From Oscillospiraceae bacterium (GTDB lineage Bacteria > Bacillota > Clostridia > Oscillospirales > CAG-272), in contig SVRG01000003.1 of NCBI GenBank assembly GCA_015064965.1, positions 1-60,293 on the forward strand: DNA of 60,293 bases, read 5' to 3'. Positions within the stretch are counted from its first letter, which is position 1, and each line of letters opens with the position of its first letter. A program made the position numbers and the translations under genes. A model generated the notes under the pieces. That model was not told the DNA's origin. It did not search any database and was given only the letters and a program-made list of their open reading frames with translations. Positions 13,206 through 59,122 of the stretch are shown piece after piece.

Positions 13206-13218
13206 TGTCTTCTCCTTT

Positions 13219-22563: not shown

Positions 22564-22661
22564 CAAGGTTTCTCCTTAAATAAAAATACTTTTTGCTACT
22601 ACATTTATTTTACCACATTTTTTCCATAACGCAATAAAAATATAGTTTTTTCTTTCATTTA

Positions 22662-37344: not shown

Positions 37345-37440
37345 AACAGTCATCCTTTCATACACAATATAGATATTATATATTAAATAGGAACATTTTG
37401 TCAATGAGTAAAACTAAATTCAGTGTGTAAAATATCAAGA

Positions 37441-38367: not shown

Positions 38368-39135
38368 TTATACTTTCATTGCGCTGCGGCCGCCGTCAAT
38401 CGGGATATTTACACCCGTGATGGAGGAGGCTGCATCGGAAGCAAGATAAGAAATGAGATTTACAACCTCGATAGGCTCTGCAGCTCTACCGATGAGAGTC
38501 TTCATCTTTGCCATTGCCTCACGTGTAAGAACCGGTCCGGGAGATACGCAAACCGCGCGGATACCGTGCTGTGCACCATACTGTGCCATGGACTTAACCA
38601 AGCCGGTCATAAGACCGCTCTTGGATACGCTGTAGTCGCAGGACATTCCTCCGCCGCCTTCAGCGCCGACAATAGAGCCAAGGTAAATGATTACACCGCT
38701 CTTTTGCTCGATCATCTGACCGATAACGCTTCTTGTGAAGTAGAGCGGACCCTTGAGGTTTACGTCAATACCCCAGTCAAGAACGTCAACGGGATAGTCC
38801 TTGAACTGCTCTTTAACCTGCTTGATACGGCAGGATGCGCCGCCTGCGAAGTTAACAAGAATGTCAATGGAGCCAAAAGTTTCCAATGTCTTGTTCTTTG
38901 CCGCTTCAATCTGTGCAAAGTCGCGAACGTCAACCTGAACTGCAATAGCCTTGCCGCCGTTTTGACGGATAGCTTCAGCAGCAGCCTCTGCCGCTTCAAT
39001 ATTCACATCGCAAAGCACAACATTTGCGCCCATCTCGGCAAAGCACTCGCTCTGGAGTTTGCCCATGCCGCTACCGGCGCCGGTAATAATTGCGGTTTTA
39101 CCGGAAAAATCAAACATCATTTTTTGAAATTCCAT
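38368..39135 (-). CDS. SDR-family oxidoreductase
   Basis: The cofactor motif is TGAGSGMG, the catalytic residues are S...YSVSK and PG follows. The RBS AAAGGAGA lies upstream. Confidence 0.9.
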   Translation of the reverse strand: MEFQKMMFDFSGKTAIITGAGSGMGKLQSECFAEMGANVVLCDVNIEAAEAAAEAIRQNGGKAIAVQVDVRDFAQIEAAKNKTLETFGSIDILVNFAGGASCRIKQVKEQFKDYPVDVLDWGIDVNLKGPLYFTRSVIGQMIEQKSGVIIYLGSIVGAEGGGGMSCDYSVSKSGLMTGLVKSMAQYGAQHGIRAVCVSPGPVLTREAMAKMKTLIGRAAEPIEVVNLISYLASDAASSITGVNIPIDGGRSAMKV

Positions 39136-40899: not shown

Positions 40900-40931
40900 T
40901 TTTGGACCCTCCATAGATTTGATTTGAAAAT

Positions 40932-42983: not shown

Positions 42984-42997
42984 CTTTTGCTTTTCTC

Positions 42998-45900
42998 CTA
43001 TTTGATTCTCTTTGAGGGCGCCGCAATTCTTGTAAAGATTACGCATGCCTCGCTTCTGACAATCTCATCATTTGGACGGTATTTGCCACTTCCTGCGTCT
43101 CCGCCAACGATGCCTGCCTCATAGAGTTTCTTAACCGCAGAATATACCGCACTGCCCTCCAAAACGTCGCTTGGTGCACCGCTTCTTGAAGCTGTATACT
43201 CACTGCTTGGAAGAATGTTTGCAAATACAACTGCCATTTCTCCCCTGGTTATATTCTTATTATAATCCTTAAACTGTCCGTTTGCAATAATATTATTTTG
43301 AATACAGTATTCAACATACGGTGCAAACCAGCTTTCACCCTGTGCTGCTTTTCTCACCGAGGTACCGTTGTACGCAGTGTGAATGTTTGCCGCTGCAGTA
43401 AGCGCCTGAGCCACGGTAAACTTGTTGTCCGGCGAAAACTTAGTGGTAGAAGTGCCGTTTGCAAGCGAATACTCGTAAGCCATCTTTACATATTCGTAGA
43501 ACCACTTATCCTTTGTTACATCGGTAAAGCTATCCGTATATGTACGGCTCTGCTTGAATTTGGATCCGCTGTTTTCACCTTCAAAACCGCTTATCTTCTT
43601 TGCAAGCGGCATGGGGTTTGCCTGCACGGTATAAACTGTGTCAAGCTTATTAGGCATTCCGCTTCCGTTACCGATGCTTACTCCATCCTTGGTGACTGTC
43701 ATCGGCTCAAAGTGCGACCAACGGCGGTCGGACGCGTCGGGTCCGAGATAGCCATGGTAAGATGCCCATTTTGTGCCAAACGGGTCAGTTATATATGACG
43801 CATGTCCGCATCCGTTAACCTCGGCAGAACGGGCAAAAATAGGCTTGCCAAGTTTTTCCCAGTTGTCTGCATCAAGCGGATCGCCGCCCTTGAATTTGAG
43901 ATAACTAAGCTGATAATATACAGTCCAATATCCACTACCTGTGTACATGAGGTAGTATGAGCCGTCATCGCCGTAAACCGCAGCCGCGCCCTCTACAACC
44001 TTTGGATACCAGTTGCCGTTTTTATCCTGACCGTAGCCGCCCATTTCCCATTCCTCAGTAGGAACACATATGGTCGTAGGCTTGCCTATCGTCCAAGGAT
44101 TCTCAAAGTCACAGATATTTACAGTCTGATGGAAGTTTGATGTTCCGCGGTCTGCCTCGCCGATATAGGTGATATAGGTCTTGCCGTTAATATAGCTTAC
44201 CGACATACCGCCACAAAGACTTTCTACGTTAACATCGGGTGCTTCGGGGAACACAATTTTGCGAGGTTTATTAACTTCACCGGTAACGGGATCGCCCCAA
44301 CGTCCGAGAAGATTGTCGCCATCAAGACATTTTACAACGTGCATACGCTGGTTTGCAGTTGTACCGTCGTCAAACGAGATGAACATGTACCAGCCCTCAT
44401 TTTCCTTGCCGACGTCCTCTGCAGTGAAATACCAGATTTCAGGTGACCAAAGATTCATACCGCCGGTTTCCTCAAGAATGGTATACGCCGCAGTAGTCTT
44501 TATATCTGCGATATTTGCCGCCTTGATAATACCAATAGTGGTAGAACCGGTACATGTATAGTAATAGAATCCGTCCTTTTCATTATATAAAAGGTTGGGG
44601 TCTGCATTGTTGTAACGAATGGGGTTTTGGAAAGTGGTTGTGCCTGTTTCCTCTTCATTGATATTGATGTTGTTGCCAATATTGAGAGTGCTCTTCATAT
44701 CGCCCTCAAAATCTTCGGCGCCGCGAAGGTCGGTGAGATGCATAAACTCACCGCCGTCGAGATTAACTGTGTAAGTACCGTGAAGCACAGTATTTAAACT
44801 CTTTGCAGGGGCGATAGCCGCCTGGAAGTCGCCGCCTGTGATATTGAGTGTTACATCATAGTTGAGCTCATACCCCGCGCTGTCCTCCTCGTAGATTGCA
44901 TAGACACCTGCAAGGAATGTACCGCCCGAAATGTTTGCCACTATCTTACCGGAGGTGTTTCCTCTGGAAGCAAAGCTGACATAACTGTGGAATGTACCGC
45001 CCGAAATGTCAACATTGTGAACAAGGTCAGTTGCAAGAAGCTTTGTCGAGTTGTAGCCGCCGCGCAGACTGCTCCACTCGCCGCTCTTGACTGTCACATA
45101 CGTTGTCTGCGATGCAAGAAGATTGTTGTGTCCGCCAACGATGCCGGGATATGTAGTATTGCTGTTGGTAAGCACGCACTTTACATTTTCGCCGATAGTG
45201 AGCGGATTACCCTTTGCATAGATTATCGCAGTGGCAGGCGCGTTGATAACAATTTTATCAAACTCGGTTTCGCCTCCGAGATTTATCGCTGCAGCAAGCA
45301 CAAGTACTGCGCCTGCATCTCTGTAATCGTTGACATAATCAAACGATGTAACTGTAATTCGGTTTGAGTGAGTCTTTACGGTATACGCACTTTCGATAGT
45401 ATATTTACCGGAAATAACTATGGTGCCGTCCTCGCCGCCAAGTGCAGTGATTGCCGCATTGAGGTCGCCGAGCGGTGCAGACGCGCTTGCGCCGTCACCT
45501 GTTCCGCCATCGGCAAGATAAACAAGGTTTGCATCGATCTGCTCGCCAAACTTTGAAGATATCTGATTGATAAGTGTCATATCGGCGCCGTCGCCATACA
45601 TAAGCGCGCCGTTTGCAAGTTTGCTTTCGATATTGAATTTTTCAATTCGCGCTTTTTCAACATCGCAAAGCACATCACACGAAAGTGCACCGATGTTTAC
45701 CGATGCAATATTGCCGCCGCGCAAGCGGAGCGTGAAATTCTTGCTGACAGTGTTCTGTGCTATATTAACAGAGTTTATATTACCGCCGGAAACAATGATT
45801 TCTGCATTTGCAATCGAACCGCTGCCGGCAAGTGCAGAGATACTTCCGATAGCACCACCGAGAATGTTCAAGGTGTGTGTACCGTTTCCGCTGAGGCCTG

Positions 45901-47344
45901 CAGAAAGTTTTTCTATACTACCTGCTTTAACGGTGATTCTACTGCTTTCGCCTGCGCCCGCAAGCGAAAAACCGCTGTAGGGGGTAACAGTTCCCTCATC
46001 AATCGTAAGAGAGCCGTCTTTTGCAACAAACGTGAGCGCACCGGATGAGGTAAGTCTTACATCTTTGAACGTAACATTACCGTCAAAGGTGTAAGTTCCC
46101 GGATTAAACTCAATCTGTCCCATCTCAACGCCGGCAAAAGTAACGCTTTCAGCCGCCTTGCCGTAATCGGAGGCAAGACCGAAAGGAACTGTGCCGATAA
46201 CATAGACTGTACCGCCGTTTTGACGGATAACTTCAAAAGCTGCCGCAAGCGAGCCTATGGGGCTTTCCTTGGTGGAGCCGTCGCCGGTGGAACCAACTTT
46301 TACATAAACCTTTGACAGGTTTTCGTATTTATCAAACGCTTCTTTAAATCGTTCGATCTGACTTGTGCCGAAAAGGCTTGAGTCGCAATAGACATTCTTT
46401 TTAGAGAGGGATTTTTCCGCACTCTTTAAAATATTGTCATTTGCATATGTAACACTTGCAGTGCCGACTTTTCCGCCGTAAAGATAAACATCAGCATTGC
46501 CAATGGTATTGTTTACTGTAACAGTACCTACAACACCGCCGTTTACTGTAACCTTTGCATTGCCCAAAAGCTGACGTGTTGCATCGCCGCCTGTATAGAC
46601 AATAGAAACTGAACCGCCGTTTACTGTAATATCTGTATTTCCGGCATAGTGGTTTACAAGAGAGCCGCCGTAAATCTCGGTAACGCTGCCGCCGTTTACG
46701 GTAATGTGAGAAGTGCCGGTGTAGGTCATTGTACCGGCGCCCTTGTTACGTGTAAATCCGCAGATCTTGTAAAAAGTACCGCTGTTTATCACAATGTTGG
46801 AGTCAAGGCTGGCATCAAGCTCCACACTTTCGGGAGTGTGATATCCGCCTACAACAAATGCCCATTTACCGCCGTTTTTAACAGTGAGCCCTGTGTCAAA
46901 AGTGAGCGGATGGAAGTTTGCGGTAAAAATGACAAAATTAGTCATCGAAACTGTAAGGTCGCGGAAGGTGGTGGGACCTGACAAACGGTGGAAAGTTCCT
47001 GAACTTACGTTTACCTGAAAATCAAGAACTGCCTTGTAGTCCTTTGCGCCGTCCTTTGCAGTAATAACAATTTCACCTGCATGTTCAGGCTGAACATAGT
47101 CAGATGTGATTGTATAATTGGACACAAGCACAACCGTACCGCCGTCTTTTACAGCGCTAATCGCCTTGTCGAGCGTTTTATATGCAGAAGACGCATCGGT
47201 ACCTGCATATGCATCATCGCCGTTCAGCGCGTCAAGATAAACTGTTTTGTCTGCTGCCGAAGCGGAAAAAGCAAAGAGTGCAAAAAGTGCAGCTACGCAC
47301 AAAACAGCTACAAAAACTTTACGAAAAACAAAATTTCTCGTCAT
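42998..47344 (-). CDS. Giant surface protein: three ~330-aa beta-helix-like modules, a GH43-like catalytic domain and three SLH repeats
   Basis: It has a signal peptide. The module openings are VYLDALNGDDAYAGTDASSAYKTLDKAI, VYVKVGSTGDGSTKESPIGSLAAAF and VYLADGGTGDGASASAPLGDLNAAI. The GH43-like motifs are NNADPNLLYNEKDGFYYY, LWSPEIWYF and EGAAAVYGDDGSYYLMYTG. The SLH tail is about 80 percent similar to that of 40932-42983. Confidence 0.8.
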   Translation of the reverse strand: MTRNFVFRKVFVAVLCVAALFALFAFSASAADKTVYLDALNGDDAYAGTDASSAYKTLDKAISAVKDGGTVVLVSNYTITSDYVQPEHAGEIVITAKDGAKDYKAVLDFQVNVSSGTFHRLSGPTTFRDLTVSMTNFVIFTANFHPLTFDTGLTVKNGGKWAFVVGGYHTPESVELDASLDSNIVINSGTFYKICGFTRNKGAGTMTYTGTSHITVNGGSVTEIYGGSLVNHYAGNTDITVNGGSVSIVYTGGDATRQLLGNAKVTVNGGVVGTVTVNNTIGNADVYLYGGKVGTASVTYANDNILKSAEKSLSKKNVYCDSSLFGTSQIERFKEAFDKYENLSKVYVKVGSTGDGSTKESPIGSLAAAFEVIRQNGGTVYVIGTVPFGLASDYGKAAESVTFAGVEMGQIEFNPGTYTFDGNVTFKDVRLTSSGALTFVAKDGSLTIDEGTVTPYSGFSLAGAGESSRITVKAGSIEKLSAGLSGNGTHTLNILGGAIGSISALAGSGSIANAEIIVSGGNINSVNIAQNTVSKNFTLRLRGGNIASVNIGALSCDVLCDVEKARIEKFNIESKLANGALMYGDGADMTLINQISSKFGEQIDANLVYLADGGTGDGASASAPLGDLNAAITALGGEDGTIVISGKYTIESAYTVKTHSNRITVTSFDYVNDYRDAGAVLVLAAAINLGGETEFDKIVINAPATAIIYAKGNPLTIGENVKCVLTNSNTTYPGIVGGHNNLLASQTTYVTVKSGEWSSLRGGYNSTKLLATDLVHNVDISGGTFHSYVSFASRGNTSGKIVANISGGTFLAGVYAIYEEDSAGYELNYDVTLNITGGDFQAAIAPAKSLNTVLHGTYTVNLDGGEFMHLTDLRGAEDFEGDMKSTLNIGNNININEEETGTTTFQNPIRYNNADPNLLYNEKDGFYYYTCTGSTTIGIIKAANIADIKTTAAYTILEETGGMNLWSPEIWYFTAEDVGKENEGWYMFISFDDGTTANQRMHVVKCLDGDNLLGRWGDPVTGEVNKPRKIVFPEAPDVNVESLCGGMSVSYINGKTYITYIGEADRGTSNFHQTVNICDFENPWTIGKPTTICVPTEEWEMGGYGQDKNGNWYPKVVEGAAAVYGDDGSYYLMYTGSGYWTVYYQLSYLKFKGGDPLDADNWEKLGKPIFARSAEVNGCGHASYITDPFGTKWASYHGYLGPDASDRRWSHFEPMTVTKDGVSIGNGSGMPNKLDTVYTVQANPMPLAKKISGFEGENSGSKFKQSRTYTDSFTDVTKDKWFYEYVKMAYEYSLANGTSTTKFSPDNKFTVAQALTAAANIHTAYNGTSVRKAAQGESWFAPYVEYCIQNNIIANGQFKDYNKNITRGEMAVVFANILPSSEYTASRSGAPSDVLEGSAVYSAVKKLYEAGIVGGDAGSGKYRPNDEIVRSEACVIFTRIAAPSKRIK

Positions 47345-47364
47345 AAATTCAAATCCTTTCAATA

Positions 47365-48162
47365 TCAGTTTTCAAGGTTGAAAGAAATATTGGGAACGCA
47401 ATCAAAGTTGTCAACAATAGCCTTCATCGAGCGAAGGAGGGGTTGGTCGCGAGAGGAAAGTGCGTCATACTGCTGAACGCAAAGCCACATGCAAACGCCA
47501 AAATATGGGCCAAGCACGCGGTGCATCTTGCACCATGGGCCGTTTGAAAGGAAGAGGAACGGGATCTTGAGTTCCTTTTTAAGCAATTTGATTGTATTAA
47601 GATTGTTCCAGAGCTGCTCTTCATTGTCGGTGCCGGTTACAAACTTTGCAATATCAACACCGCGGCTCTGTTGCTCAAGCGCAAGTTCAAGCACCTGTTC
47701 AGGCTCCATATACTTGAAGATATGCGAGGACATAAGCACCTCTGCTCCTGCCTCATGGAACTTTTCGATCTGCGCTTTCTGTTTATCAATAGCAATGGGG
47801 TTCTTAGTCATTTCGCCGGGAGTAGGATCAAAAGTGTCACCGGTGAGGTCCACAAGTGTTGCTCCGCACTTGATAGCAAGCATAAGCTCGTCCATGCGCG
47901 CTTCCTCGGTCATTTCCTTATTATATGCACCGCGGTAGTTTGTAATATAGAGCGGCTTGTTGCCCATATACGCGGTAAGTTTTTTGAGAATATCCTCTGT
48001 TCTGAATTCGGGGCGGAGTCTTTCCATCTGCATGCCGAATGCATCAGCGCCGTCATAAATGGCGTTGCGTATATTGTTTACTGCCTGAGTGGGAGTTTCA
48101 ACAATAACCATATCAACCAAAAGCGGTCTTTCATGCCCTAAAAAGGTGAGTTTCTTTTCCAT
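47365..48162 (-). CDS. Type I 3-dehydroquinate dehydratase (AroD)-like protein
   Basis: By manual alignment it is collinear with AroD: KPLYITNYRG, LVDLTGD, VLMSSHIF (His position), VDIAKFV (Schiff-base Lys position) and MHRVLGPYFG. Confidence 0.65.
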   Translation of the reverse strand: MEKKLTFLGHERPLLVDMVIVETPTQAVNNIRNAIYDGADAFGMQMERLRPEFRTEDILKKLTAYMGNKPLYITNYRGAYNKEMTEEARMDELMLAIKCGATLVDLTGDTFDPTPGEMTKNPIAIDKQKAQIEKFHEAGAEVLMSSHIFKYMEPEQVLELALEQQSRGVDIAKFVTGTDNEEQLWNNLNTIKLLKKELKIPFLFLSNGPWCKMHRVLGPYFGVCMWLCVQQYDALSSRDQPLLRSMKAIVDNFDCVPNISFNLEN

Positions 48163-48354
48163 AACATATGCCTCCGTTAAAAGTTTATATTAGTATACAA
48201 TCTAATAATACCATCTGAACCTTTTATTAGCAATGCAAAAACTGATACTTATTTGTGTAAAATGATACACATTTTGCAATATTTGGTACTTTTGTTGATT
48301 TTATTTAACAAAAATGATATACTCATTATAACAAATCTTGAAAAGGAGAACTGT

Positions 48355-49140
48355 ATGAAAAGCATCTCAAAAATCACGCCGATTCGTTTTGTGGGCGCAC
48401 TTACCATAAAAAACCCCGTATTTAAACTGCGCGAACAACAGGATCGCAAATCATACGGTATCTGCTTTGCAAAGTCCGGCAAAATGGTTTATTACCATGA
48501 CGGTAAAGAATACATTTCTGACAAAAATCATGTTTTGCTCTTGCCCAAAGGCGCTACATATACGCAATCATGCCTGATAGAGGGCGAGTTTCCGCTTATA
48601 CAGTACCAGGCACTTGACGGCACTGCACCAAATGAGTTTATCAGTATCGAAATCAGCGATATCGAAAACTATCTCGGCGAGTTTGCAAAACTTGAAAAGC
48701 TGTGGCTTATAAAGCCGCCAAACGGACATCTCAGCGCGCTTTGCCACATATACGAAATTCTCAATCGCCTTTATAAAAATGAGCTTGCACAAAAGAGCGA
48801 TAAAAGCTTTGACATTATTCGTCCTGCAGTAAAATACCTTGAAGACAATTTTACAAATCCAAATCTTTCAAATCACATGCTTGCCGAAAAAGCGGCGGTA
48901 AGCGAGGTATATTTCCGCCGCGTGTTTAAAAATCAATACGGCACCTCGCCAAAGCAGTACATACAAAACCTGCGTATCCGCACCGCAGAAAACCTGCTGC
49001 TCAACGAGTACCTTTCGGTTTCTTCAATCGCAGAGATGTCCGGATTTACAAGCGTTTACCATTTTTCGCGCACATTTAAAAAATCCACCGGCTACACCCC
49101 GACAGAATATGTAAAAGCTTTCGGCAGCGCCGGTCAGTAA
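48355..49140 (+). CDS. AraC-family transcriptional regulator
   Basis: The RBS AAAGGAGA lies upstream of the ATG at 48355. The HTH reads LSNHMLAEKAAVSEVYFRRVFKNQYGTSPKQY...SIAEMSGFTSVYHFSRTFKKSTGYTPTEY. Confidence 0.85.
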   Translation: MKSISKITPIRFVGALTIKNPVFKLREQQDRKSYGICFAKSGKMVYYHDGKEYISDKNHVLLLPKGATYTQSCLIEGEFPLIQYQALDGTAPNEFISIEISDIENYLGEFAKLEKLWLIKPPNGHLSALCHIYEILNRLYKNELAQKSDKSFDIIRPAVKYLEDNFTNPNLSNHMLAEKAAVSEVYFRRVFKNQYGTSPKQYIQNLRIRTAENLLLNEYLSVSSIAEMSGFTSVYHFSRTFKKSTGYTPTEYVKAFGSAGQ

Positions 49141-49172: not shown

Positions 49173-52100
49173 TTATTCAGCTATTATTATCGGCCAATTT
49201 GCAGTGGAAGAAAGAACATTATTACCCATTGCATCGGATATCACTGAGGTGCCGTCATCCTTGTTATACAACGTTGCAGTAAAGAGAATGTTTTTGGATG
49301 TAAAATAACTCATCGGAATTGAAAGTTCGGTAACTGCGCCAAGCTTGTCAACTGCGACAGATGCAAAACCAATCTCTTTTGCATCGTGTTTCTGGAGCGT
49401 TTCGCCCGAGTAAACAACCTCACTTACAGAGTTAAGACCGACCTTTACTCTGTAAAAACCGCTCTTGCCCTCCTCGGCAAAGTAAAGCGTGATACTGTCG
49501 CCGGCTGTGAGCGAATAGTCGCTTCTCTCCAAAAGCAGATAAAGTCTGTCACCGTTAACTGCGGCGCGAATCGCGCTTTGTGCCTGAGTGGACGAGCCAA
49601 CAAAAAGTGCCTCACTTCCCTGCCAATCCTTATTGTTTCCGTCAACGGTAATAGCGGTCTTTTCAGCCTTTATTGCGTGATTAAGATACACTGTGCCGAC
49701 CATAAGCGTATTTGTGTCGCCGGTATTTGCAATCGCAGCAATTGCAGAGTGGGATGTGCGCTTTTCAACAGTACCCCAATAGCCACCGTTTAAGAAAGGC
49801 ATATATGTCGCACCAAAGTTTTCGCCGTTTTCATCGCCGACACGGAGCTGCATACGATTATTAACATTATAGGTAAGCAGAGTTTCGCCCGAATCAAACT
49901 GCAAAATGTACGGTGCCGCACCGAGGAAAACGTTGTCTGCGCGTTTTACGGGACCTTCCTCCTCGGTATCAAGGGGCGCAGTCCAGTTGTCGCTTGAATA
50001 GCCGAACGAAATATAAAGTTCTCCTGCATCGGGGCGCGACTCAACCGCCATAACCGAAGTGCCGTTGTTGAGATGTGCAACTGCGGGCATTTGGTCGGTA
50101 AAAAGTGTTTTTGCGCTGTCAACCTTGCGCTTTTGCTGCATAACAACTGCCGCACTGTACGGTGCACCGGTAACACTTGGTGTCCATGTTTTTCCGTTAT
50201 CCACAGAGCGAAGCATTCCGACACCGCTTGAGAGATAATCCTTATCAAGCTTGCCGTCAAGATAGAACTTAGGTGCGTTATGAGTAAAGAATATCTGCAC
50301 CTCACCGTCCGCAGTCTGGGTCATGAACGGCTCCCAGTTGATGCCCTTGTAAATCTCCTCTTCTTCGGTCCATGTTTTTCCGTTGTCTGTGGAACGGCGA
50401 ATTACAAGGCCGCCCATTGATGCATCCTTACCGTAACCGAGGTTGTAGCGATAAGAAGCCACCGCCAATATATCGCCGTTTGCAAGCACAAAGCCGTCGC
50501 AGGTGGAGTAACGTATGGAGTCAGATTCGCCGTTTACCCCTTTTGCTGCATGAAGTTTGAAGAGCAATTCGCCGCGTGACCATTTCAAAGCATCTTCGCT
50601 TGTTGTGTAATAGATATTTGAGCCGATCTGAGCATTTTGGTAAAACATAATGTATCTGCCGTCGCTCATCTGTTTAACGCGGGGATACATTGCACCGGTT
50701 GTCATAAGTATATCGGGGGTAACTTCAACATACTGTCTGAAGTTCATTTCAACGCTACTGTGCGAGGAAAAGCCCCCATGCGAATCCGCAGAGGGCTTTT
50801 CGTTGTTGAGCATGTCGATGGTGTTTATCTTCAAATCGCCTGCGGTGGGCAAAATTTCTGGCATATCAACCACAGCGCCCACAGCCTTTGTAAGCGTTGC
50901 GGTGCTTGTTGCGCCGTCCCACTCAACTTTTGCACCGAGTTTGTCGGCAACAAAGCGCACGGGGAGATATGTTCTGCCGTTTTCAATGAACGCAGGAGAG
51001 TCAAGCAATACATCCTCGCCGTTTACAAACGCAACGGGAGAATTGATTACGATTTTAATTTCAACATCGTCGGTTTTAACAGTTGCAGTGCTTGTTGCGC
51101 CGTTCCACAAAACCACCGCGCCAAAGCTGTCCGCAACAAAGCGAACAGGGAGCATGGTTCTGCCGTTTCTGATGATTGGCGCTGCATCAAGTTCTTTTGC
51201 CTCGCCGTTTACATAACCGACCTTTTGACCGATGGTGAGCTTAACCTCGGTAATCTGCGGCTCACTGCTCTCTTCTCCCTCGGTTGTAACATTGTCAAAA
51301 AACGATGAAACTGTTTCAAAATTTGCCGCCGCCTTGGTTTTGTCGGAATACACAAGAGTTTTGCCGTAGGTAAGGAACAAGTCACTTCCCTCACTAAAAA
51401 CATCGGCATACTTTCCGATAGTGCCGCCGAGCCAGTTTACAGTAAAGCTTTCTGCAAAGCCGCTTGCACTTGCACCGAAAATCTCATCAACCTTAGCATT
51501 GCCGTCAATGGTTACAACGGTTTTTCCCGATGTGAAAGGCTTGTTGCAAGGGGTGAGGTAAAGGCGGGAAACATGCGCGTTTCCGCCGATCGTAACATTT
51601 GCAGTGCCGAGGTACGATGCGCCGTCGATAAGGCGCGAATATGCGCCGATATTGATATTTGAACCGCCTAAAACGGTGATATTGGTATCAAGTGAATTCT
51701 CAGCCTCGGGCGCATCCTTGGAGCCGCGGAGCTTTGGCTGACCTGACTGATAGTTGCCGAGAATTGAAAAAGATGTGCCAAAGGTTTTACCGTCAAAGCC
51801 CGCATTGGTGGACTTTACAGTAACGCCCTCTCCGAGCGTAAAGGGATAGTGGTTTGCAATAACAAACATATATTTGCCGGTAATAACGATGTCAATATCG
51901 TCAAAAACAAACTCGCCGCTGCAGACAAATCGTGCTCCGATACATTCATAAACCGCGCCGTATTTGCGGTAATCCATGCCGTCATGCACCGAAGTTATCT
52001 TGATTTTACCGTCAAATGTTTCCGGATAAGCAAAGTTTGCCGCCTGTTCAAAACGTCCGCAAACTACAATGGTGCAATCCTTGGTTTTGTCGAGCAATTC

Positions 52101-52262
52101 AACCGCCTTGCCAAGCGAGCCAACCGGACTGTTGTCGCTGAGTCCGTTGCCGTCAGCACCTGTTTCAAGGTAAACAACGGTAACGCCCTCCTCGGCGCTG
52201 CCGCATATAACAAACATACAAACAAGGGTGATGAGCATCAAAAAGTACAATACCTTTTTCAT
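49173..52262 (-). CDS. Secreted fusion protein: beta-helix-like module, two copper-amine-oxidase-N domains, a BNR/Asp-box propeller and a CBM9-like module
   Basis: It has a signal peptide. The N-terminal module opens VVYLETGADGNGLSDNSPVGSLGKAVELL. Two copies of (V/Y)VNGE...LD(A/S)P..I.NGRT(M/Y)LPVRFVAD follow. The Asp-boxes are STDNGKTW and SVDNGKTW. The C-terminus ITVDGNNKDWQGSEALFVGSSTQAQ is homologous to 20704-22563. Confidence 0.8.
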   Translation of the reverse strand: MKKVLYFLMLITLVCMFVICGSAEEGVTVVYLETGADGNGLSDNSPVGSLGKAVELLDKTKDCTIVVCGRFEQAANFAYPETFDGKIKITSVHDGMDYRKYGAVYECIGARFVCSGEFVFDDIDIVITGKYMFVIANHYPFTLGEGVTVKSTNAGFDGKTFGTSFSILGNYQSGQPKLRGSKDAPEAENSLDTNITVLGGSNINIGAYSRLIDGASYLGTANVTIGGNAHVSRLYLTPCNKPFTSGKTVVTIDGNAKVDEIFGASASGFAESFTVNWLGGTIGKYADVFSEGSDLFLTYGKTLVYSDKTKAAANFETVSSFFDNVTTEGEESSEPQITEVKLTIGQKVGYVNGEAKELDAAPIIRNGRTMLPVRFVADSFGAVVLWNGATSTATVKTDDVEIKIVINSPVAFVNGEDVLLDSPAFIENGRTYLPVRFVADKLGAKVEWDGATSTATLTKAVGAVVDMPEILPTAGDLKINTIDMLNNEKPSADSHGGFSSHSSVEMNFRQYVEVTPDILMTTGAMYPRVKQMSDGRYIMFYQNAQIGSNIYYTTSEDALKWSRGELLFKLHAAKGVNGESDSIRYSTCDGFVLANGDILAVASYRYNLGYGKDASMGGLVIRRSTDNGKTWTEEEEIYKGINWEPFMTQTADGEVQIFFTHNAPKFYLDGKLDKDYLSSGVGMLRSVDNGKTWTPSVTGAPYSAAVVMQQKRKVDSAKTLFTDQMPAVAHLNNGTSVMAVESRPDAGELYISFGYSSDNWTAPLDTEEEGPVKRADNVFLGAAPYILQFDSGETLLTYNVNNRMQLRVGDENGENFGATYMPFLNGGYWGTVEKRTSHSAIAAIANTGDTNTLMVGTVYLNHAIKAEKTAITVDGNNKDWQGSEALFVGSSTQAQSAIRAAVNGDRLYLLLERSDYSLTAGDSITLYFAEEGKSGFYRVKVGLNSVSEVVYSGETLQKHDAKEIGFASVAVDKLGAVTELSIPMSYFTSKNILFTATLYNKDDGTSVISDAMGNNVLSSTANWPIIIAE

Positions 52263-52289: not shown

Positions 52290-53186
52290 TTATCTTAACA
52301 CATTTATACCGTGCGCCTCAAGTATTTTTCGCGCATTTTCTACTTCGGTGGATGTTGGAATCGGCGCACTATCTTTATCAAGCGTATAATCAATTTCAAG
52401 AGAGGCATATTTTGTGCTTGAAAGGCTGTGATAAGGCAGCACGCGCACGCCCTTTACAGAGTGAAGCGAAGCGATAAAGTCAGCAATTCCCGTCATCTCG
52501 CCGGCATTTTGATTTGGCACATAAGGGATTCTGATTTCCATTGGCATCCCAATCGCATCGAGATAACGGATATTATCCAGAATAATATCGTTGTACTGCC
52601 CGGTAAGTGCCTTATGCACATCGCGGTCAATCGCCTTTATATCAACCAAAAAAGTATCGGTATACGGCACAACCTTTTCAAGGTTTTCGCGCGAGGCAAA
52701 AAGGCAGGTGTCAACGGCTGTATTAATGCCGTTTTCTTTAAGCAGTTTCAAAAGCTCTGCCGAAAAATCTGCCTGTAACAGTGGCTCGCCGCCAGAAAGC
52801 GTAACTCCTCCGCCCGAATTGTCATAGAACTCTTTGTCCTCTAACAGTTTTGGCAGAATATCATAAGGCGCCACGCTCTCACCGTAGAATATGAGCGCAC
52901 CAAAAGTACATTCCTCAGCGCACTCTCCGCATCCCACACATTTTGCGCGTTCAAAGCTGTGTACACCGTCCTTTATACTGTGTGCACCTGCTTTGCAAAC
53001 GCTTATACAGTCGCCGCACGCTGCACATTTATCCGAATAAAAGCCCAGTTCAGCCTTTGGCGCAAGGCTTTCGGGATTGTGACACCACTTGCAGCGAAGC
53101 GGACATCCTTTCAGAAAAATCGTTGTGCGAAGCCCATCGCCGTCATGTATCTCAAAGCGTTTAATGTTTAAAATTCTTCCGTTCAT
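52290..53186 (-). CDS. Glycyl-radical-enzyme activating enzyme (radical SAM with two extra ferredoxin-type clusters)
   Basis: The motifs are GLRTTIFLKGCPLRCKWCHNPES, CAACGDCISVC and CVGCGECAEEC. The ATG at 53186 lies 1 nt after the GRE stop. Confidence 0.9.
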   Translation of the reverse strand: MNGRILNIKRFEIHDGDGLRTTIFLKGCPLRCKWCHNPESLAPKAELGFYSDKCAACGDCISVCKAGAHSIKDGVHSFERAKCVGCGECAEECTFGALIFYGESVAPYDILPKLLEDKEFYDNSGGGVTLSGGEPLLQADFSAELLKLLKENGINTAVDTCLFASRENLEKVVPYTDTFLVDIKAIDRDVHKALTGQYNDIILDNIRYLDAIGMPMEIRIPYVPNQNAGEMTGIADFIASLHSVKGVRVLPYHSLSSTKYASLEIDYTLDKDSAPIPTSTEVENARKILEAHGINVLR

Positions 53187-53187
53187 A

Positions 53188-55377
53188 TCAGCTTGCCACA
53201 TTCTCGCATTGACGGATGAGGTCATCCTGTTCGGTTTTAGAAAGCTCAACAAAATACACATTCCATCCGCAAAGACGAACCTGGAGAGTTGCATATTTCT
53301 CAGGCTCTGCCTGCGCGCGGCGAAGCACATCGGGTGAAAGCACATTCATCTGGAATGCAAAACCTTTTTTCTTCATATAGGTCGTGAGAAGCGCGTACAT
53401 TGCAACAATGCCCTCGTCCCCCTCTGTAGCAGTGCGATGAAGCATCACATCAAGCACGGTGCCGTCGGGTACACCGGTAAAGTCAATTTCTGTTACGGAT
53501 TTGATAAGCGCAGTTACACCCTCTTTATCCATTGCGGTAACTGCTCCCATATTCTTAGAGAGCATTTCACCCGCCACTCTGCCGTCAGGAGTTGCACCCA
53601 TTCGCTCACCAAATGAAATGCGGTAGTCTATGGAGAAAAGTCCAAGACGGAACACGCCGCCGCGATGATTGGGTTTGCCGTTTACATATTCGGATGCAAA
53701 CGCAACAATGTCCTTTGCAAGCATATCTGGCTCTGCAAGTCCGTTACCGTATTTGGGCATTTTACGAAGCACTCTGCGATGAAGCGCCTCGTGTCCCTCC
53801 CAATTGTTTGCCAAAATCTCTGCAAACTCGGAAAGCGTGAGCGCTTTTTCTTCATATACAAGTTTCTTTACGGCAACAAGCGCATCGGCAGTACTTGCCA
53901 CGCTGAATGCAACTATCGAGGAGTTGCAGTATTTTGCACCGCGGTCATACGCATCGTGTCCGCTTTCCATACACGGTTCATACGTTGCCGAAAGCAGCGG
54001 AGCCTGGCTGAACACAGGATAATAGTCCTCATATGCACGTACAAGGTCCATAGCTCCATCCAAAAATGCCGCAATCTGTTCCTTTACCGCAGCGTAAAAC
54101 TCGTCAAATGTCTTGTATTCATCGGGATCTGTCCGTACAGTTCCTACATAGTTTCCCGTATACGCATCAAATCCGCCGTTCATTACGGTGAGCAGTGCCT
54201 TGGTCATGTTTGCTCTGCCCGCGCATGTACAGGGAACCTCCTTGCCCATTGCACACGGCTCATAGCAACCGATAACAATATAATTTCTCGCATCTGCGGC
54301 ATCCTCGCCGATGCCGACAAGCGCCTCTTCAACCACGTTATCGTTTATAAAAACAAAGCTGTTTTTGCCGTCACGGATCGAAGTAAGAATGAGTTTTACA
54401 AAATCTTCGGGAATCTCATCGTACCAACGCACATGGATTTTCGGGTCGTTGATATCAAGCGAAGAATACTCCTCTACAATTATGTAGGAAAGCTCATTTA
54501 CTGCACCGCTGCCGTCTGCAAGGCGTCCGCCAACGTAAAACGGAACATTGGCAACAACTTTCATAGAATAGAATTTATAGAAATAATAGCGAAGAAGTTC
54601 GCGGAGCTGACTCTCGGTAAATCTGCCGCTCTCAAGGTCGCGTTTAAAATAAGGATAAAAAAGCCGGTCAAGTCCGCCAACAGAGCGGATCGGCTCGCGC
54701 TCAACGTGAGTCTGCAAATTATAGTAGATCATGCAAAGCTGCATTGCCTCAAGCATGGTTTTTGGCGCGCGTACAGTGAGGTTGCGCAAACTCTCGCTGA
54801 CGAGTGTTGCGCGGTCGGTACCGTGTCTTGCCATCTCATCGGCAAGGCGGCGCACAAGCGTAATAGTAGACTCAAGCACGCTTTCCACGCACTCATAAAA
54901 TGTATTCTGCTCCTCGGTGAGTCCGTCCTTTTTGTGTGCGGCTTTAGCTCTTTCAAGAAGTCCTACAAAGCCATAATCCAAAAGCGCCTGCCAATCGGGT
55001 GCTATATGTCCGAGGTCTATATTACCTGTATAGCAAAGCCCCTCCTGACCGTTTTCATGAAGCGCAAGCACATCACGAAGTTCATTTGCGCGAAGGGATT
55101 TAATCCACTCTTCGCGAATTCTTGAAATCAGATAGTCATGGCGAAGTCTTTCGGGGAAAAAGTCTGCCTCGCGCACATCGAGCTGTGCGTTTTCAAGCAC
55201 AAACTTATACATGCGGGTTTTGGCAATAATGCGCGGCAATCCCTCACATTCCTTTGCAATGGCGTGACAGCCATCATGAAGCTCCTTCGGCGAAAGTCCG
55301 CTTTCGGGATTCCATGTCTGCCCATTATATATGGATTCAATTACTTTCTTGTCTTCATCAAAGCGATTCCAGATCAT
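53188..55377 (-). CDS. Glycyl radical enzyme (PFL superfamily, eliminase-like Cys-x-Glu loop), substrate unknown
   Basis: 729 aa. The Cys loop is VIGCYEPCAMGKE and the C-terminal glycyl-radical loop is TLQVRLCGWNVYFVELSKTEQDDLI. The RBS GGAGGG lies upstream of the ATG at 55377. Confidence 0.85.
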   Translation of the reverse strand: MIWNRFDEDKKVIESIYNGQTWNPESGLSPKELHDGCHAIAKECEGLPRIIAKTRMYKFVLENAQLDVREADFFPERLRHDYLISRIREEWIKSLRANELRDVLALHENGQEGLCYTGNIDLGHIAPDWQALLDYGFVGLLERAKAAHKKDGLTEEQNTFYECVESVLESTITLVRRLADEMARHGTDRATLVSESLRNLTVRAPKTMLEAMQLCMIYYNLQTHVEREPIRSVGGLDRLFYPYFKRDLESGRFTESQLRELLRYYFYKFYSMKVVANVPFYVGGRLADGSGAVNELSYIIVEEYSSLDINDPKIHVRWYDEIPEDFVKLILTSIRDGKNSFVFINDNVVEEALVGIGEDAADARNYIVIGCYEPCAMGKEVPCTCAGRANMTKALLTVMNGGFDAYTGNYVGTVRTDPDEYKTFDEFYAAVKEQIAAFLDGAMDLVRAYEDYYPVFSQAPLLSATYEPCMESGHDAYDRGAKYCNSSIVAFSVASTADALVAVKKLVYEEKALTLSEFAEILANNWEGHEALHRRVLRKMPKYGNGLAEPDMLAKDIVAFASEYVNGKPNHRGGVFRLGLFSIDYRISFGERMGATPDGRVAGEMLSKNMGAVTAMDKEGVTALIKSVTEIDFTGVPDGTVLDVMLHRTATEGDEGIVAMYALLTTYMKKKGFAFQMNVLSPDVLRRAQAEPEKYATLQVRLCGWNVYFVELSKTEQDDLIRQCENVAS

Positions 55378-55548
55378 AATGCCCTCCAAAAAAGTTTTCT
55401 TGATTTTAGATTATACCTGAAGGCGCATTTTGTAAATGCAACTTTCATGCAAATTTATATTTTTCGCTCACAAAACGATTATTTTTTCTCGAAAATATTG
55501 ATTTTGTTTGTATTTTTTGATTAAATAGTATTGAAAGGCGGTGAAAAA

Positions 55549-56349
55549 ATGTCAAAGCTTTGCAAAAAGAAGCCTCTTATCGGAGAGTTTTATCAAGCAG
55601 TTGAAGGCGTGATCCACAAGCGTTTTCTCCCTGAAAAGCCCCACGGCAGAGAAAGCGATGCTTTTATATATATTACAGAAGGAAAATGCGTTTATCGCTT
55701 TGCAGACGAAACATTTTCTGCTCAAAGCGGCGATATTCTCTTTTTGGCAAGGGGCGGCATTTATTCTATGGATATACAAAGCGAAGAATACCGCTTTATA
55801 TTTATCGACTTTGATTTTGCCTCAGATGCCCCGTGCAAGCATGAGGTTTTTAAAATGCAGAATGCGCGCGCCACAGAAAGTATGTTCCGCCGTATGCTTG
55901 AAAAATGGCGACAAAAGCGTCTTGGTGTAAAAGAAGAATGCCTTTCTCTGCTCTACTCCGTTTATGCCGAAGTCATAAAGTCCGAGGGCGCGGAATATCT
56001 GCCCAATTCCAAACGTGCAAAACTCGAAAACGCACTGCATTTCATAGCGGAGAATTTTTCAAAAGAAGATCTCACAGTTGAAAATGTTGCTCAGATCGCA
56101 GGCATGAGTCAGTCGCATTTTCGCAGGCTTTTCAAAAGTGCATACCGGATTTCGCCGATAAAATATATAAATATCATGCGTATTGACCGCGCAAAAGAGC
56201 TTATACGATACACAAACGAGTCTTTTTCTGACATAGCCGCAGAGGTGGGATTTGCCAATCTATATTACTTCAGCAGAATTTTCAAAAAAGAAGTCGGGTG
56301 CACCCCAAGCGAATTTAAAGAAGAATACAGCGAATATCAAAAAATGTAA
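55549..56349 (+). CDS. AraC-family transcriptional regulator (divergent from the GRE operon)
   Basis: Cupin-like N-terminus. The HTH reads VENVAQIAGMSQSHFRRLFKSAYRISPIKY...FSDIAAEVGFANLYYFSRIFKKEVGCTPSEF. Confidence 0.85.
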   Translation: MSKLCKKKPLIGEFYQAVEGVIHKRFLPEKPHGRESDAFIYITEGKCVYRFADETFSAQSGDILFLARGGIYSMDIQSEEYRFIFIDFDFASDAPCKHEVFKMQNARATESMFRRMLEKWRQKRLGVKEECLSLLYSVYAEVIKSEGAEYLPNSKRAKLENALHFIAENFSKEDLTVENVAQIAGMSQSHFRRLFKSAYRISPIKYINIMRIDRAKELIRYTNESFSDIAAEVGFANLYYFSRIFKKEVGCTPSEFKEEYSEYQKM

Positions 56350-56378
56350 AAAAGCGACTGCAATGCAGTCGCTTTTTA
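56350..56378. terminator. Bidirectional intrinsic terminator
   Basis: AAAAAGCGACTGCA-A-TGCAGTCGCTTTTT. Confidence 0.85.
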
Positions 56379-57026
56379 TTACAGTTTTTCAAAATCTTCT
56401 GCGCCGTGTTTGCAAAGCGGGCAGATAAAATCGGGCGGGAGTTCCTCCCCCTCATAAACATATCCGCAGATCTTGCAGACATAGCCACTCTTCTTTTCTT
56501 CCTTTGCCGCAGGCTTCGGCTTTACATTATCAAAATAATACTGATACGTCATTGACGGCACGCTTGAAAGTATTTTTGTTTCGCACACGTCTGCAATAAA
56601 CATGGTGTGCGTTCCGCAATCCACAGTGGCAACCACAGCGGCGCTTATCACCGCATTTGTAAACTTTGGCACATACAAAATGCCGTTACCCATGCGGTTT
56701 TCGCTCTCACAATCGGCAAATTTATTTACATCTTTACCGCTTTGAAATCCAAAATGCTGAAATACCTTGAACGGTGCTTCCTCGGAGAGGACCGAAAGAT
56801 TAAATGCATCTGTGCGCATTATCATATCATGAGTGTAATTCTGCTTGTTCACAGTAATTGCAATGCGGCATGGCGAAGAGGTAAGCTGAACAGCGGTATT
56901 GATTATGCAACCGTTGTCCTTCTTTCCGTCGCGTGCGGTAAGCACAAAAAGTCCGTAAGAGATCTTAAAAAGTGCGCTTGCGTCAAATTTTGCCCCGATA
57001 TCGGGCGCATTTATTTTAAAAGGCAT
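56379..57026 (-). CDS. Flavin-reductase-like domain fused to a C-terminal rubredoxin
   Basis: The N-terminal part is a flavin reductase-like fold (GLFVLTARDGKKDNGCIINT). The C-terminal rubredoxin motif is YVCKICGYVYEGEELPPDFICPLCKHGAEDFEKL (CxxC...CxxC). Confidence 0.8.
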   Translation of the reverse strand: MPFKINAPDIGAKFDASALFKISYGLFVLTARDGKKDNGCIINTAVQLTSSPCRIAITVNKQNYTHDMIMRTDAFNLSVLSEEAPFKVFQHFGFQSGKDVNKFADCESENRMGNGILYVPKFTNAVISAAVVATVDCGTHTMFIADVCETKILSSVPSMTYQYYFDNVKPKPAAKEEKKSGYVCKICGYVYEGEELPPDFICPLCKHGAEDFEKL

Positions 57027-57729: not shown

Positions 57730-57793
57730 ATTCTTGAACTTTTTAAGGAAAATTATGCATTTTTCCGACTAACTATTGAAAGGAGTGACTTTG

Positions 57794-59122
57794 ATGTTTA
57801 AAAAGCATATCAAATTTACAGCGTTTATTGGCGCAATGCTCTCTGTTTCGCTTTTGGCAAATAGCTGCATAAGCAGCGGTGCTTACACCATTGCGGCTGA
57901 GGCTCGCTATCCCGAAATGGCAAAATATCCGGAGGGAGAAATGCTCCCGGGCTTTGAAGACCGCTATGATGCGTGGCGCGAAAGTATAAAATCTCAACGC
58001 GAAAACTTTGGCGCGGGCGAAAATCTAGGCGAATTCTTTACAAAAACCATATCCAAGTTTCTCTTAGGCAAAGATGATGAAAACCGAATATACTCGCCGC
58101 TGAACGTGTACATGGCTCTTGCAATGCTTGCCGAAATAACCGACAATGAAAGCCGCGATCAGATTTTATCATTGCTAAATGCCGAAGACATTGATGCGCT
58201 CCGCGCACAGGCAAAAAAGATCTGGCTCGCAAATTACTCCGATGACGGTGCGGTTACAAGCATACTTGCATCCTCGCTCTGGCTGAACGATACTGTTAAA
58301 TTCAAACAGGATACACTGAACTCACTCGCAGACAATTACTATGCTTCAACCTACCATGGCAAAATGGGCTCAAAAGGGTTGAATGAGGCTCTGCAGAAGT
58401 GGCTCAACGAGCAAACCGGCGGTTTGCTTAAAGACTATGTTTCAGGAATTGAACTCACTCCTGAAACCGTAATGGCGCTTTACACCACAATCTATTTCCA
58501 GGCAAAGTGGGAAAACGAGTTTTTAAAAAGTGAAACAAAAAAGCAAACTTTCCATGCGCCAAGCGGCGATACTGAATGTGATTTTATGAACAAATCCGAA
58601 ACCTACGGCATATATTACTTCGGCGAAAAGTTTGGCGCAACCCGCCTTGGACTTAAAAATAGCGGATCTATGTATTTTATCCTCCCCGATGAAGGCGTTA
58701 CCACCGAAGAACTCCTTGCCGACAGCGAAGCACTTGGATTTATGGTAGCAAACGGCGATTTTGAAAATTCAAAGTCGCTCCGCGTTAACATTTCCATGCC
58801 TAGATTTGATGTTAAATCCAAAATTGACCTTTCAAACGGACTTAAAAACCTCGGCATTACCGACTGCTTCAATGGCTCAAAAGCAGATTTTTCACCCCTC
58901 CTTGAAGGTGGCGGAGTGTGGCTTGACAGGGTAAACCACGGCGCGCGAGTAAAGGTTGACGAGGAAGGCGTTGAAGCTGCAGCGTACACCGAAATGCTGC
59001 TCTGCGGCGCGGCGATGCCGCCCGAGGACGAGATGGATTTTGTACTTGACCGCCCATTTATCTTTGTTATAACAGGCTCCGACGATCTCCCCCTCTTTGT
59101 CGGCACTGTAAATAATCCCTAA
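57794..59122 (+). CDS. Secreted serpin-family protease inhibitor
   Basis: It has a signal peptide. The serpin hinge and reactive-centre-loop region is DEEGVEAAAYTEMLLCGAAMPPED, followed by FVLDRPFIFVI. The RBS AAAGGAG lies upstream of the ATG at 57794. Confidence 0.85.
   Translation: MFKKHIKFTAFIGAMLSVSLLANSCISSGAYTIAAEARYPEMAKYPEGEMLPGFEDRYDAWRESIKSQRENFGAGENLGEFFTKTISKFLLGKDDENRIYSPLNVYMALAMLAEITDNESRDQILSLLNAEDIDALRAQAKKIWLANYSDDGAVTSILASSLWLNDTVKFKQDTLNSLADNYYASTYHGKMGSKGLNEALQKWLNEQTGGLLKDYVSGIELTPETVMALYTTIYFQAKWENEFLKSETKKQTFHAPSGDTECDFMNKSETYGIYYFGEKFGATRLGLKNSGSMYFILPDEGVTTEELLADSEALGFMVANGDFENSKSLRVNISMPRFDVKSKIDLSNGLKNLGITDCFNGSKADFSPLLEGGGVWLDRVNHGARVKVDEEGVEAAAYTEMLLCGAAMPPEDEMDFVLDRPFIFVITGSDDLPLFVGTVNNP

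Follow-up and report, generated by a model that had tools for sequence, protein, structure and literature searches.

The 60,293-nt stretch of Oscillospiraceae bacterium DNA analysed here (contig SVRG01000003.1 of assembly GCA_015064965.1; hereafter the window) encodes on its minus strand, at positions 53188-55377, a 729-residue glycyl radical enzyme (GRE) whose two deviant catalytic loops, G-C-Y-E-P and R-L-C-G-W-N, characterise a large, as yet unnamed clade and are not a quirk of one protein. We favour, with moderate confidence, the reading that this is a functional, cytosolic GRE that would carry out ketyl-radical β-elimination of an oxygen leaving group from a carbohydrate-derived substrate. 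Its catalytic machinery is that known from GRE eliminases and isomerases; what is new is a set of invariant core substitutions of its own, a shorter chain and a clade with no characterised member. Fusions with hydrolases and esterases, and operons with secreted glycan-active proteins, are associations not described for GREs.

No class of anaerobic radical enzymes is growing faster than that of the GRE eliminases, and each newly assigned member, whether its substrate was choline, hydroxyproline, isethionate or an anhydro-sugar, has revealed a new metabolic pathway of the gut. Given its links with glycoside hydrolases, carbohydrate esterases, transporters and sugar dehydrogenases, the present clade may supply a radical step in the catabolism of fibre or host glycans that is absent from current pathway maps. 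According to a June 2026 review, entire GRE clades are still unvalidated (PMC13450708); no enzyme of the GCYE/CGWN type appears in that review, and literature searches that included 2025-26 papers mentioning 'glycyl radical' found no paper on the clade.

Integrity, fold and length of the enzyme

The gene and its predicted catalytic residues map as follows.

53188-55377, minus strand: glycyl radical enzyme of the GCYE/CGWN clade, 729 aa (Pfam, AlphaFold2, Foldseek, ribosome-binding site)
54256-54270, minus strand: thiyl (Cys) loop G370-C371-Y372-E373-P374, predicted β-hairpin tip (translation, AlphaFold2)
53260-53277, minus strand: glycyl loop R701-L-C703-G704-W705-N706, with Gly704 the predicted radical site (translation, AlphaFold2)
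55006-55008, minus strand: codon of His124, counterpart of glycerol dehydratase His164, the proposed general acid (HMMER alignment)

Translation of the window gives an intact open reading frame (ORF). Its ATG at 55377 follows a ribosome-binding site (RBS; GGAGGG) placed 6 nt upstream, so the TTG at 55389, which would add four codons, is merely a mechanical ORF start. Both domains that define the superfamily are present in the product, the catalytic PFL-like domain (PF02901, E=1.2e-106) and the C-terminal glycine-radical domain (PF01228, E=2.9e-18). An AlphaFold2 model built from 30 clade members (pLDDT 94.4, pTM 0.93) places Cys371 and Gly704 each at the tip of a β-hairpin (residues 366-376 and 699-708), in keeping with the superfamily's ten-stranded barrel, in which the two loops form opposed hairpin tips. 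Compared by Foldseek with all solved eliminases and isomerases, the model matches glycerol dehydratase, propanediol dehydratase, CutC, HpzG, PflD and YbiW at template-modelling (TM) scores of 0.86-0.89 and identities of just 20-26%. An earlier reading of this DNA from its letters and ORFs (the sequence-only reading) had described a 729-residue protein with the hallmarks of the GRE fold and had suggested structure prediction as a check; Pfam, Foldseek and the confident model agree with that description. Its remark that the chain is shorter than those of characterised eliminases also holds, since 729 residues fall below every solved one (765-850 aa). Relative to glycerol dehydratase, about 40 residues are missing at the N terminus and about 19 in the core (residues 161-786 aligned with 121-727 of the query).

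Sequencing runs that contain the gene are DNA runs only, from faeces metagenomes and a sheep gut metagenome. A 486-codon frame lies antisense within the gene (53665-55125, plus strand); it matches no family and most probably reflects nothing more than the codon usage of the coding strand.

Catalytic loops and invariant residues

In the model the thiyl loop is flanked by strands 366-369 and 373-376, and the glycyl loop is the hairpin between strands 699-702 and 705-708. Both lie exactly where the sequence-only reading had put them, the former with Tyr in the middle of Cys-x-Glu (CXE) and the latter with the Gly704 codon at 53266-53268. That reading had regarded the loops as deviating from known forms; GCYE and RLCGWN are indeed present, but they are not idiosyncratic, and Trp after the radical Gly is also found in the solved Archaeoglobus PFL2 (RVAGWS). 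The Arg, Gly and aromatic residue of the glycyl fingerprint R-V-x-G-[FWY] are retained, with Leu in place of Val and Cys at x. Cys before the radical Gly is permitted by the PROSITE glycyl-radical pattern and occurs in class III ribonucleotide reductases.

The CXE motif is kept by all eliminases and isomerases, its Cys adjoining the carbon that loses hydrogen and its Glu being hydrogen-bonded to a substrate hydroxyl, and in glycerol dehydratase His164 protonates the departing hydroxyl (PMC13450708). We mapped pocket residues by HMMER alignment to glycerol dehydratase, propanediol dehydratase, CutC and HpzG. By these alignments His124 corresponds to the general acid (His164 of glycerol dehydratase, His166 of propanediol dehydratase), falling on GH in 1r8w, 5i2a and 2f3o and on Glu in HpzG. 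Across 178 non-redundant clade members the C371-Y372-E373 triplet is invariant, as are D121, H124, R231, D237, K313, S463, D498, R600, K608, N609, D643, N678, R701, C703, G704, W705 and N706. When clade and outgroup GREs are compared, F74, D121, R231, K313, Y372, K608, Q699, C703, W705 and N706 are specific to the clade, whereas H124, C371, E373, R701 and G704 are superfamily-wide. Invariance of the catalytic residues in 178 sequences that range down to 33% identity argues for purifying selection.

Because residues i and i+2 of a hairpin tip face one side and i+1 the other, Tyr372 would face away from the substrate; it is predicted to pack toward the glycyl loop, having co-changed with Cys703, Trp705 and Asn706. 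In its fixed Tyr, set between catalytic Cys and Glu, and in the Cys beside the radical Gly, the clade offers a natural experiment on rebuilding a radical-relay core.

Extent and hosts of the clade

Among 5.8 billion proteins searched, the relatives fall into about 113 clusters (33-92% identity, 690-755 aa), all of which carry GCYE and R-[LVR]-C-G-W-N. The next matches below the clade, at about 30% identity, are 780-790 aa long, have GCVE and RVAGY and are annotated as HypD-like. When 1.84 billion representatives at 50% identity were searched with a profile, 2809 GRE-like proteins were found at E<=1e-30, and the best 150 of these all fall in the clade (483-1010 bits). Among those 150, both motifs are present in 108 of the 147 newly retrieved representatives, and the remaining new ones are edge variants, for example GCYE with RV[ST]GW[NS]. 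A motif-guided scan of the GTDB species representatives (one genome per prokaryotic species) yielded at least 569 relatives, nearly all in metagenome-assembled genomes (MAGs) of gut Clostridia (Oscillospiraceae, Acutalibacteraceae, Ruminococcaceae and unclassified Eubacteriales), with a few in Armatimonadota. The animal sources of these MAGs are humans, ruminants, birds and rabbits, and the closest relative, 92% identical, comes from a Eubacteriales MAG (locus L014). Confinement almost wholly to uncultured gut Clostridia is probably the reason why the clade has been overlooked.

At 55% identity the clade divides into at least 54 groups, between which the putative pocket positions differ. Such variation at positions aligned to substrate-contacting residues suggests that the clade has many specificities.

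An outgroup homologue from Bathyarchaeia (P0119, 783 aa) reads R-V-A-T-W, with Thr replacing the radical Gly, and G-C-A-S, which lacks the Glu; it resembles the aminoacyl radical enzymes described in 2024.

Comparison with characterised glycyl radical enzymes

Characterised eliminases comprise glycerol dehydratase, propanediol dehydratase, HpfG, HypD, HpyG, HpzG, CutC, IslA/IseG and HpsG, and characterised isomerases HplG, YbiW and PflD (PMC13450708). The enzyme had been called an orphan, and this status stands: no GRE of known substrate clusters with it, identities are 20-26%, and the NCBIfam equivalogs for HpfG, HypD, PflD-type enzymes, HpsG and CutC, with 257-305 bits against cut-offs of 1000-1109, all exclude it. 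Its score for the PFL2/glycerol dehydratase subfamily (TIGR01774) is 377 bits, under the cut-off of 678. The Tyr and Trp substitutions that the sequence-only reading had singled out proved common in the subfamily to which the enzyme belongs, but that subfamily has no known substrate.

Structurally, the enzyme is best matched (TM 0.87) by the glycerol dehydratase of Clostridium butyricum (1r8w) and the 1,2-propanediol dehydratase of Roseburia inulinivorans (5i2g). They share with the query the Gly and Cys loop hairpins, CXE, the His counterpart and an activase with two ferredoxin motifs. Identity is 24-25%, however, and the query is some 60-110 residues shorter; both dehydratases have Val between Cys and Glu, and RVAGY, where the query has Tyr and RLCGWN. 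Asp447 of glycerol dehydratase is replaced by Cys385, the query adds the clade-specific R231, K313 and K608, and its locus, unlike those systems, is without microcompartment or 1,3-propanediol genes.

By sequence, the best PDB matches are Archaeoglobus PFL2, glycerol dehydratase, propanediol dehydratase, CutC and HpzG. The top one, PFL2 of Archaeoglobus fulgidus (2f3o, E=3.5e-80), has a Trp after the radical Gly and a short chain (776 aa) but differs in GCVE, in Ala before the Gly, in its archaeal, hyperthermophilic origin and in being 26% identical; its function is disputed and it is itself without assignment (PMC13450708). YbiW and PflD, the sole characterised GREs that act on sugars, share CXE and the fold (TM 0.86-0.87) with the query and differ from it in identity (24%), loop signatures, PRK09983 score (275 bits against 1109) and phosphosugar context, which the query lacks. 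HypD and its relatives HpyG, HpzG and HplG have CXE eliminase chemistry and gut Clostridia hosts in common with the query, and the nearest matches outside the clade in the protein search are annotated HypD-like. The HypD group differs in its model score (NF043068, 296 bits against 1100) and in having GCVE and RVAGY, HpzG differs further in the Glu at the His124 position, and proline-pathway genes are absent at the GRE locus.

Probable operon, regulators and secreted partner

The genes and control region around the enzyme are listed below.

52290-53186, minus strand: GRE-activating radical S-adenosylmethionine (SAM) enzyme, 298 aa, with two auxiliary ferredoxin-type motifs (TIGR02494, Cys motifs)
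49173-52262, minus strand: secreted protein, 1029 aa, third operon gene (Pfam, AlphaFold2, Foldseek)
55549-56349, plus strand: divergent AraC-family regulator with a ligand-binding domain (Pfam HTH_18, HTH_AraC, AraC_binding)
55378-55548, no strand assigned: 171-nt divergent control region between the GRE and AraC genes, with promoter-like hexamers and the GRE RBS (consensus matches only)
48253-49140, plus strand: second AraC-family regulator, convergent with the operon end (Pfam; same layout in L014)
47365-48162, minus strand: divergent type I dehydroquinase-like protein, class I aldolase fold (PF01487, E=8.5e-13)

The gene adjoining that of the GRE qualifies as its cognate activase, scoring 320.9 bits for TIGR02494 (cut-off 174) and carrying CX3CX2C at residues 28-35. 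Two CX2CX2CX3C motifs (residues 54-64 and 83-93) account for the two extra ferredoxin-type clusters that the sequence-only reading had assigned to it. A TGA, 1 nt and an ATG form the junction between the GRE and activase genes, and the activase is translationally coupled. A gap of 27 nt then leads to the gene of the secreted protein, which has an AAGGAG RBS, and no convincing terminator was found between the three genes, which thus appear to form a co-transcribed three-gene operon. The divergent AraC regulator at 55549-56349, named in the same reading, is recognised by Pfam with its ligand-binding domain, and GRE expression is probably induced through it. Within the control region, consensus matches include TTGACA-17-AATACT on the minus strand (55555-55527) and a TATAAT box. 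A link of the second AraC regulator to the operon is possible.

The dehydroquinase-like protein scores 38.7 bits for AroD (TIGR01093), against a cut-off of 139, and a PDB sequence search with it gave nothing. Its homologues lie near related GREs in L014, L001 and L009 only, and it is at best a weak candidate for a downstream enzyme.

A flavin-reductase/rubredoxin fusion protein (56379-57026, minus strand) is encoded convergently on the AraC gene; as a small redox protein beside a GRE locus, it might supply the activase with electrons. Between the two genes a hairpin with a 13-bp stem (56349-56377) could terminate either of them.

The 1029-residue secreted protein consists of a signal peptide, two Cu_amine_oxidN1 domains, a six-bladed propeller of the kind that forms the GH33 fold, and a CBM9-like β-sandwich. 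Residues 470-1029 were modelled with a pLDDT of 88.9, and Foldseek placed GH33 sialidases and KDNases best, at 12-14% identity and target-normalised TM scores of up to 0.70; a PDB sequence search with the protein found nothing. Its homologues are proteins of about 600 aa annotated as 'exo-alpha-sialidase', with BNR_2 and CBM9-like domains, which are common in Clostridia and Bacteroidota. The order GRE, activase, secreted propeller is conserved in L001 and L014, where the GREs are 71% and 92% identical to the query. Plausibly, the protein is glycan-active and releases the substrate of the GRE or a precursor of it.

Elsewhere in the window, a second sialidase-fold propeller paralogue of 620 aa (20704-22566, minus strand) lies beside a 793-residue Cu_amine_oxidN1 protein (18305-20686, minus strand). 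Each is related to parts of the 1029-residue protein, as if the latter had been fused from two such genes.

Gene context and fusions across the clade

To compare neighbourhoods, 1319 ORFs were called and clustered in 94 loci, and Pfam domains were counted on 299 neighbours. An AraC gene accompanies the GRE in 67 of the 94 loci and an activase in 57; the other counts are dominated by carbohydrate functions. Glycan-active neighbours include GH43, GH78, GH106, GH2, GH127-like and BNR_2 proteins, SASA and GDSL esterases and a sulfatase. Dehydrogenases (zinc-dependent alcohol dehydrogenases, Zn-ADH; GFO_IDH_MocA; the short-chain family SDR), PfkB kinases and aldolases of the 2-keto-3-deoxy-6-phosphogluconate (KDPG) and HpcH types are also found, together with xylose-isomerase-like TIM barrels, EamA, MFS and ABC transporters, DUF5696 proteins and aldose epimerase. 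One clade group has the arrangement GRE-(GDSL esterase)-EamA-activase, and another combines an RHGA-like protein of pectate-lyase fold, an MFS transporter, the GRE and the activase. The loci L019, L020 and L007 have GREs 47-50% identical to the query; there, one strand encodes DUF5696, two ABC permeases, GFO_IDH_MocA, two Zn-ADHs, GH43, the GRE and the activase, and the opposite strand a GH127-like protein, PfkB, a KDPG-type aldolase and aldose epimerase.

We found seven long single-ORF fusions in the set clustered at 50% identity, each with the GRE C-terminal to another module, as follows.

P0347: GH78-like six-hairpin domain and GRE
P0350: GH2 β-mannosidase-like module and GRE
P0355 and P0365: AXE1/CE7 esterases and GRE
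P0361: SASA esterase and GRE, followed by GH2 and GH127 genes
P0352: 3-keto-disaccharide-hydrolase domain and GRE
P0357: 830-aa region with no domain assignment and GRE

These fusions, mutually independent, all point to a functional link with glycan deconstruction, and the comparative neighbourhoods point to glycan-derived compounds as the substrate class. The sequence-only reading had seen nothing near the gene that identifies the substrate. It remains the case that no neighbour names a compound; the operon, the contexts and the fusions do, however, point to glycan-derived substrates.

Proposed reaction and alternatives

Since the Gly704-Cys371 relay and the Glu373/His124 acid/base pair are intact, we infer that an oxygen leaving group next to a carbinol carbon would be lost by ketyl-radical β-elimination. 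The adjoining radical SAM activase would place the radical on Gly704, from which it would pass to Cys371. The Cys371 thiyl radical would then take hydrogen from a hydroxyl-bearing carbon of the carbohydrate-derived substrate, Glu373 would remove the hydroxyl proton to give a ketyl radical, and His124 would protonate the oxygen leaving group on the adjacent carbon, causing its elimination; the product radical would finally regain hydrogen from Cys371. The leaving group may be a hydroxyl, as in a dehydratase, or a ring or glycosidic oxygen, as in an isomerase or lyase. Tyr372, Cys703, Trp705 and Asn706, with Arg231, Lys313 and Lys608, may represent a co-inherited remodelling of the inter-loop core and of part of the pocket, one that would leave the radical relay unchanged.

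The carbohydrate nature of the substrate, like the chemistry and the regulation, is deduced, and several points weigh against our proposal. The clade has no biochemically characterised member, the pocket assignments depend on sequence alignment at 20-26% identity, and CXE with His is also consistent with C-N or C-S cleavage. Contexts are heterogeneous: leaving aside AraC and the activase, each type of neighbour is confined to about 10% of the loci at most. Every fusion comes from a single metagenomic contig. In the window, co-transcription is deduced from gene spacing alone, and no transporter, kinase or aldolase directly adjoins the operon. The propeller is just 12-14% identical to real sialidases, and in the propeller part of the alignment R59 and R136 are the only invariant arginines, so that a full Arg triad is not evident there.

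A more specific proposal, which we hold to be unlikely, is that the enzyme is a radical sugar-acid (aldonate) dehydratase that removes hydrogen from C2 and expels the C3 hydroxyl to give a 2-keto-3-deoxy sugar acid, which a kinase and an aldolase, or here the dehydroquinase-like protein, would then handle. It is motivated by L007, L019 and L020, where aldose epimerase, GFO_IDH_MocA, Zn-ADHs, a metallo-β-lactamase-fold protein, PfkB and the KDPG-type aldolase resemble an oxidative sugar pathway that lacks a dehydratase; since no conventional aldonate dehydratase is listed there, the GRE is the sole candidate for that step. The CitMHS carboxylate-type transporter and Mem_trans carrier adjoining the 71%-identical GRE of L001, the HpcH/HpaI and RraA-like aldolases at other loci and the clade-specific invariant basic residues R231, K313 and K608 fit as well. 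Kinase and aldolase genes, however, occur at a minority of loci and none is adjacent in the window, three dehydrogenases per cluster exceed what the pathway needs, and the basic residues have only a putative place in the structure. We consider it rather less probable that the enzyme is a ring-opening isomerase or radical glycoside lyase, in which a ketyl at C2 (or C3/C4) would expel the ring or glycosidic oxygen of an anhydro-sugar or glycoside. YbiW and PflD, at TM 0.86-0.87 to our model, use the same CXE to open the rings of 1,5-anhydroglucitol-6-phosphate and 1,5-anhydromannitol-6-phosphate (PMC13450708), and this chemistry would have to be extended to glycosides. The fusions with glycoside hydrolase, carbohydrate esterase and 3-keto-disaccharide-hydrolase domains would suit such an enzyme, but a hydrolase fusion is equally compatible with a GRE that acts on the freed monosaccharide. 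GFO_IDH_MocA proteins and xylose-isomerase-like TIM barrels, which recur as neighbours, are hallmarks of keto-glycoside cleavage pathways; on the other side stand the low score for the PflD-type model given above, the absence of adjacent phosphosugar genes in the window and the lack of precedent for cleavage of glycosidic bonds by a GRE.

The same eliminase chemistry might be directed at a non-sugar substrate, such as a cyclitol carboxylate of the quinate/shikimate type, a hydroxy-amino acid, an amino alcohol or a sulfonate, a prospect that we judge to be improbable. It is true that dehydroquinase-I-like and SDR or ADH genes neighbour the GRE in the window, L014, L001 and L009, and that in the protein search the nearest outgroups with a name carry a hydroxyproline dehydratase annotation. 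Against this, the HypD, CutC, HpfG and HpsG models score 257-305 bits where 1000-1100 are needed, and sulfite reductase, microcompartment shell and proline-pathway genes are absent from the Pfam matches of the 299 neighbours. Quinate or shikimate was downgraded as a substrate, the dehydroquinase-like protein falling short of the AroD cut-off and being present in just 4 of about 90 loci, and a literature search on 'glycyl radical' with 'quinate' gave nothing relevant. Membership in another GRE class, or decay to an inactive relic, is very improbable indeed. The general fold is common to all GREs, and decarboxylases of the 4-hydroxyphenylacetate (HPAD) type also have a Glu two residues past the Cys. 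The loop, however, reads C-Y-E and lacks the Cys-Cys pair of formate lyases (PFL, TdcE; TIGR01255, 104 bits against 994), the HPAD and indoleacetate decarboxylase models give 162-186 bits against 1100-1150, the BssD-type model is far under its cut-off, and no small-subunit gene is present among the ORFs adjoining the GRE. Catalytic residues that stay invariant in so diverse a set of sequences speak against a relic.

Export-like signals

Most of the hydrolase-GRE fusions start with Sec or lipoprotein-like signal peptides (loci L094-L096). On high-GC (57-67%) gut contigs, a sub-branch of the GRE clade and its activases carry conserved twin-arginine-like N-terminal extensions, with patterns such as TRRxFLE, SRREF and TRKEF followed by a hydrophobic stretch and AxA. 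Examples among the GREs are P0362 (MKADLTRRRFLEGLAAASLG...) and P0359. Of the 61 activase fragments, 29 are extended in this way, one of them by MKTSRREFIAASASFAVLPSFAADG... ahead of the usual KRMAIxDGPG; the observation covers L096:3810-4100, L097:134-2724 and proteins P0359, P0362 and P0388-P0448. Over-extended ORF calls do not account for an extension that is conserved in dozens of homologues. If the signals are real, they would imply extracytoplasmic GREs exported by twin-arginine translocation (Tat), which is hard to square with the requirement for SAM and a reductant; to our knowledge, Tat export of a GRE system is without precedent.

A bolder view of the clade, which we regard as doubtful, combines these signals with the fusions. 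The clade would then be an unrecognised class of carbohydrate-active radical enzymes that break C-O bonds, including ring and glycosidic ones, by ketyl-radical β-elimination. In some Gram-negative-type high-GC gut bacteria, where the enzyme is fused to glycoside hydrolases or esterases, Tat-like signals on both enzyme and activase would make these the first extracytoplasmic GREs. As part of the same view, such enzymes would act on glycan-derived sugars that are intractable under anaerobic conditions to hydrolases and conventional dehydratases.

Other genes in the window

The wider window is a glycan-degradation region, with two GH31 and two GH43 genes, the propeller paralogue described above, a sugar ABC transporter and five AraC genes. 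At 39163-47362 the minus strand encodes, in tandem, three secreted paralogues of 583, 704 and 1454 aa; S-layer homology (SLH) domains are found on the 704- and 1454-residue proteins and a GH43 domain on the latter. Just downstream of them is an SDR gene (38368-39135). A radical SAM/SPASM protein of 279 aa (37476-38315), encoded divergently from a cytosolic GH43 (36439-37404), may be a maturase. The two GH31 genes are adjacent (9321-15582, minus strand), one of them encoding a secreted protein of 1302 aa with a PA14 domain, and an AraC gene lies at 15759-16514. Serpins are uncommon in bacteria; a secreted one of 448 aa (Pfam Serpin, E=1.4e-70) is encoded at 57776-59122 on the plus strand.

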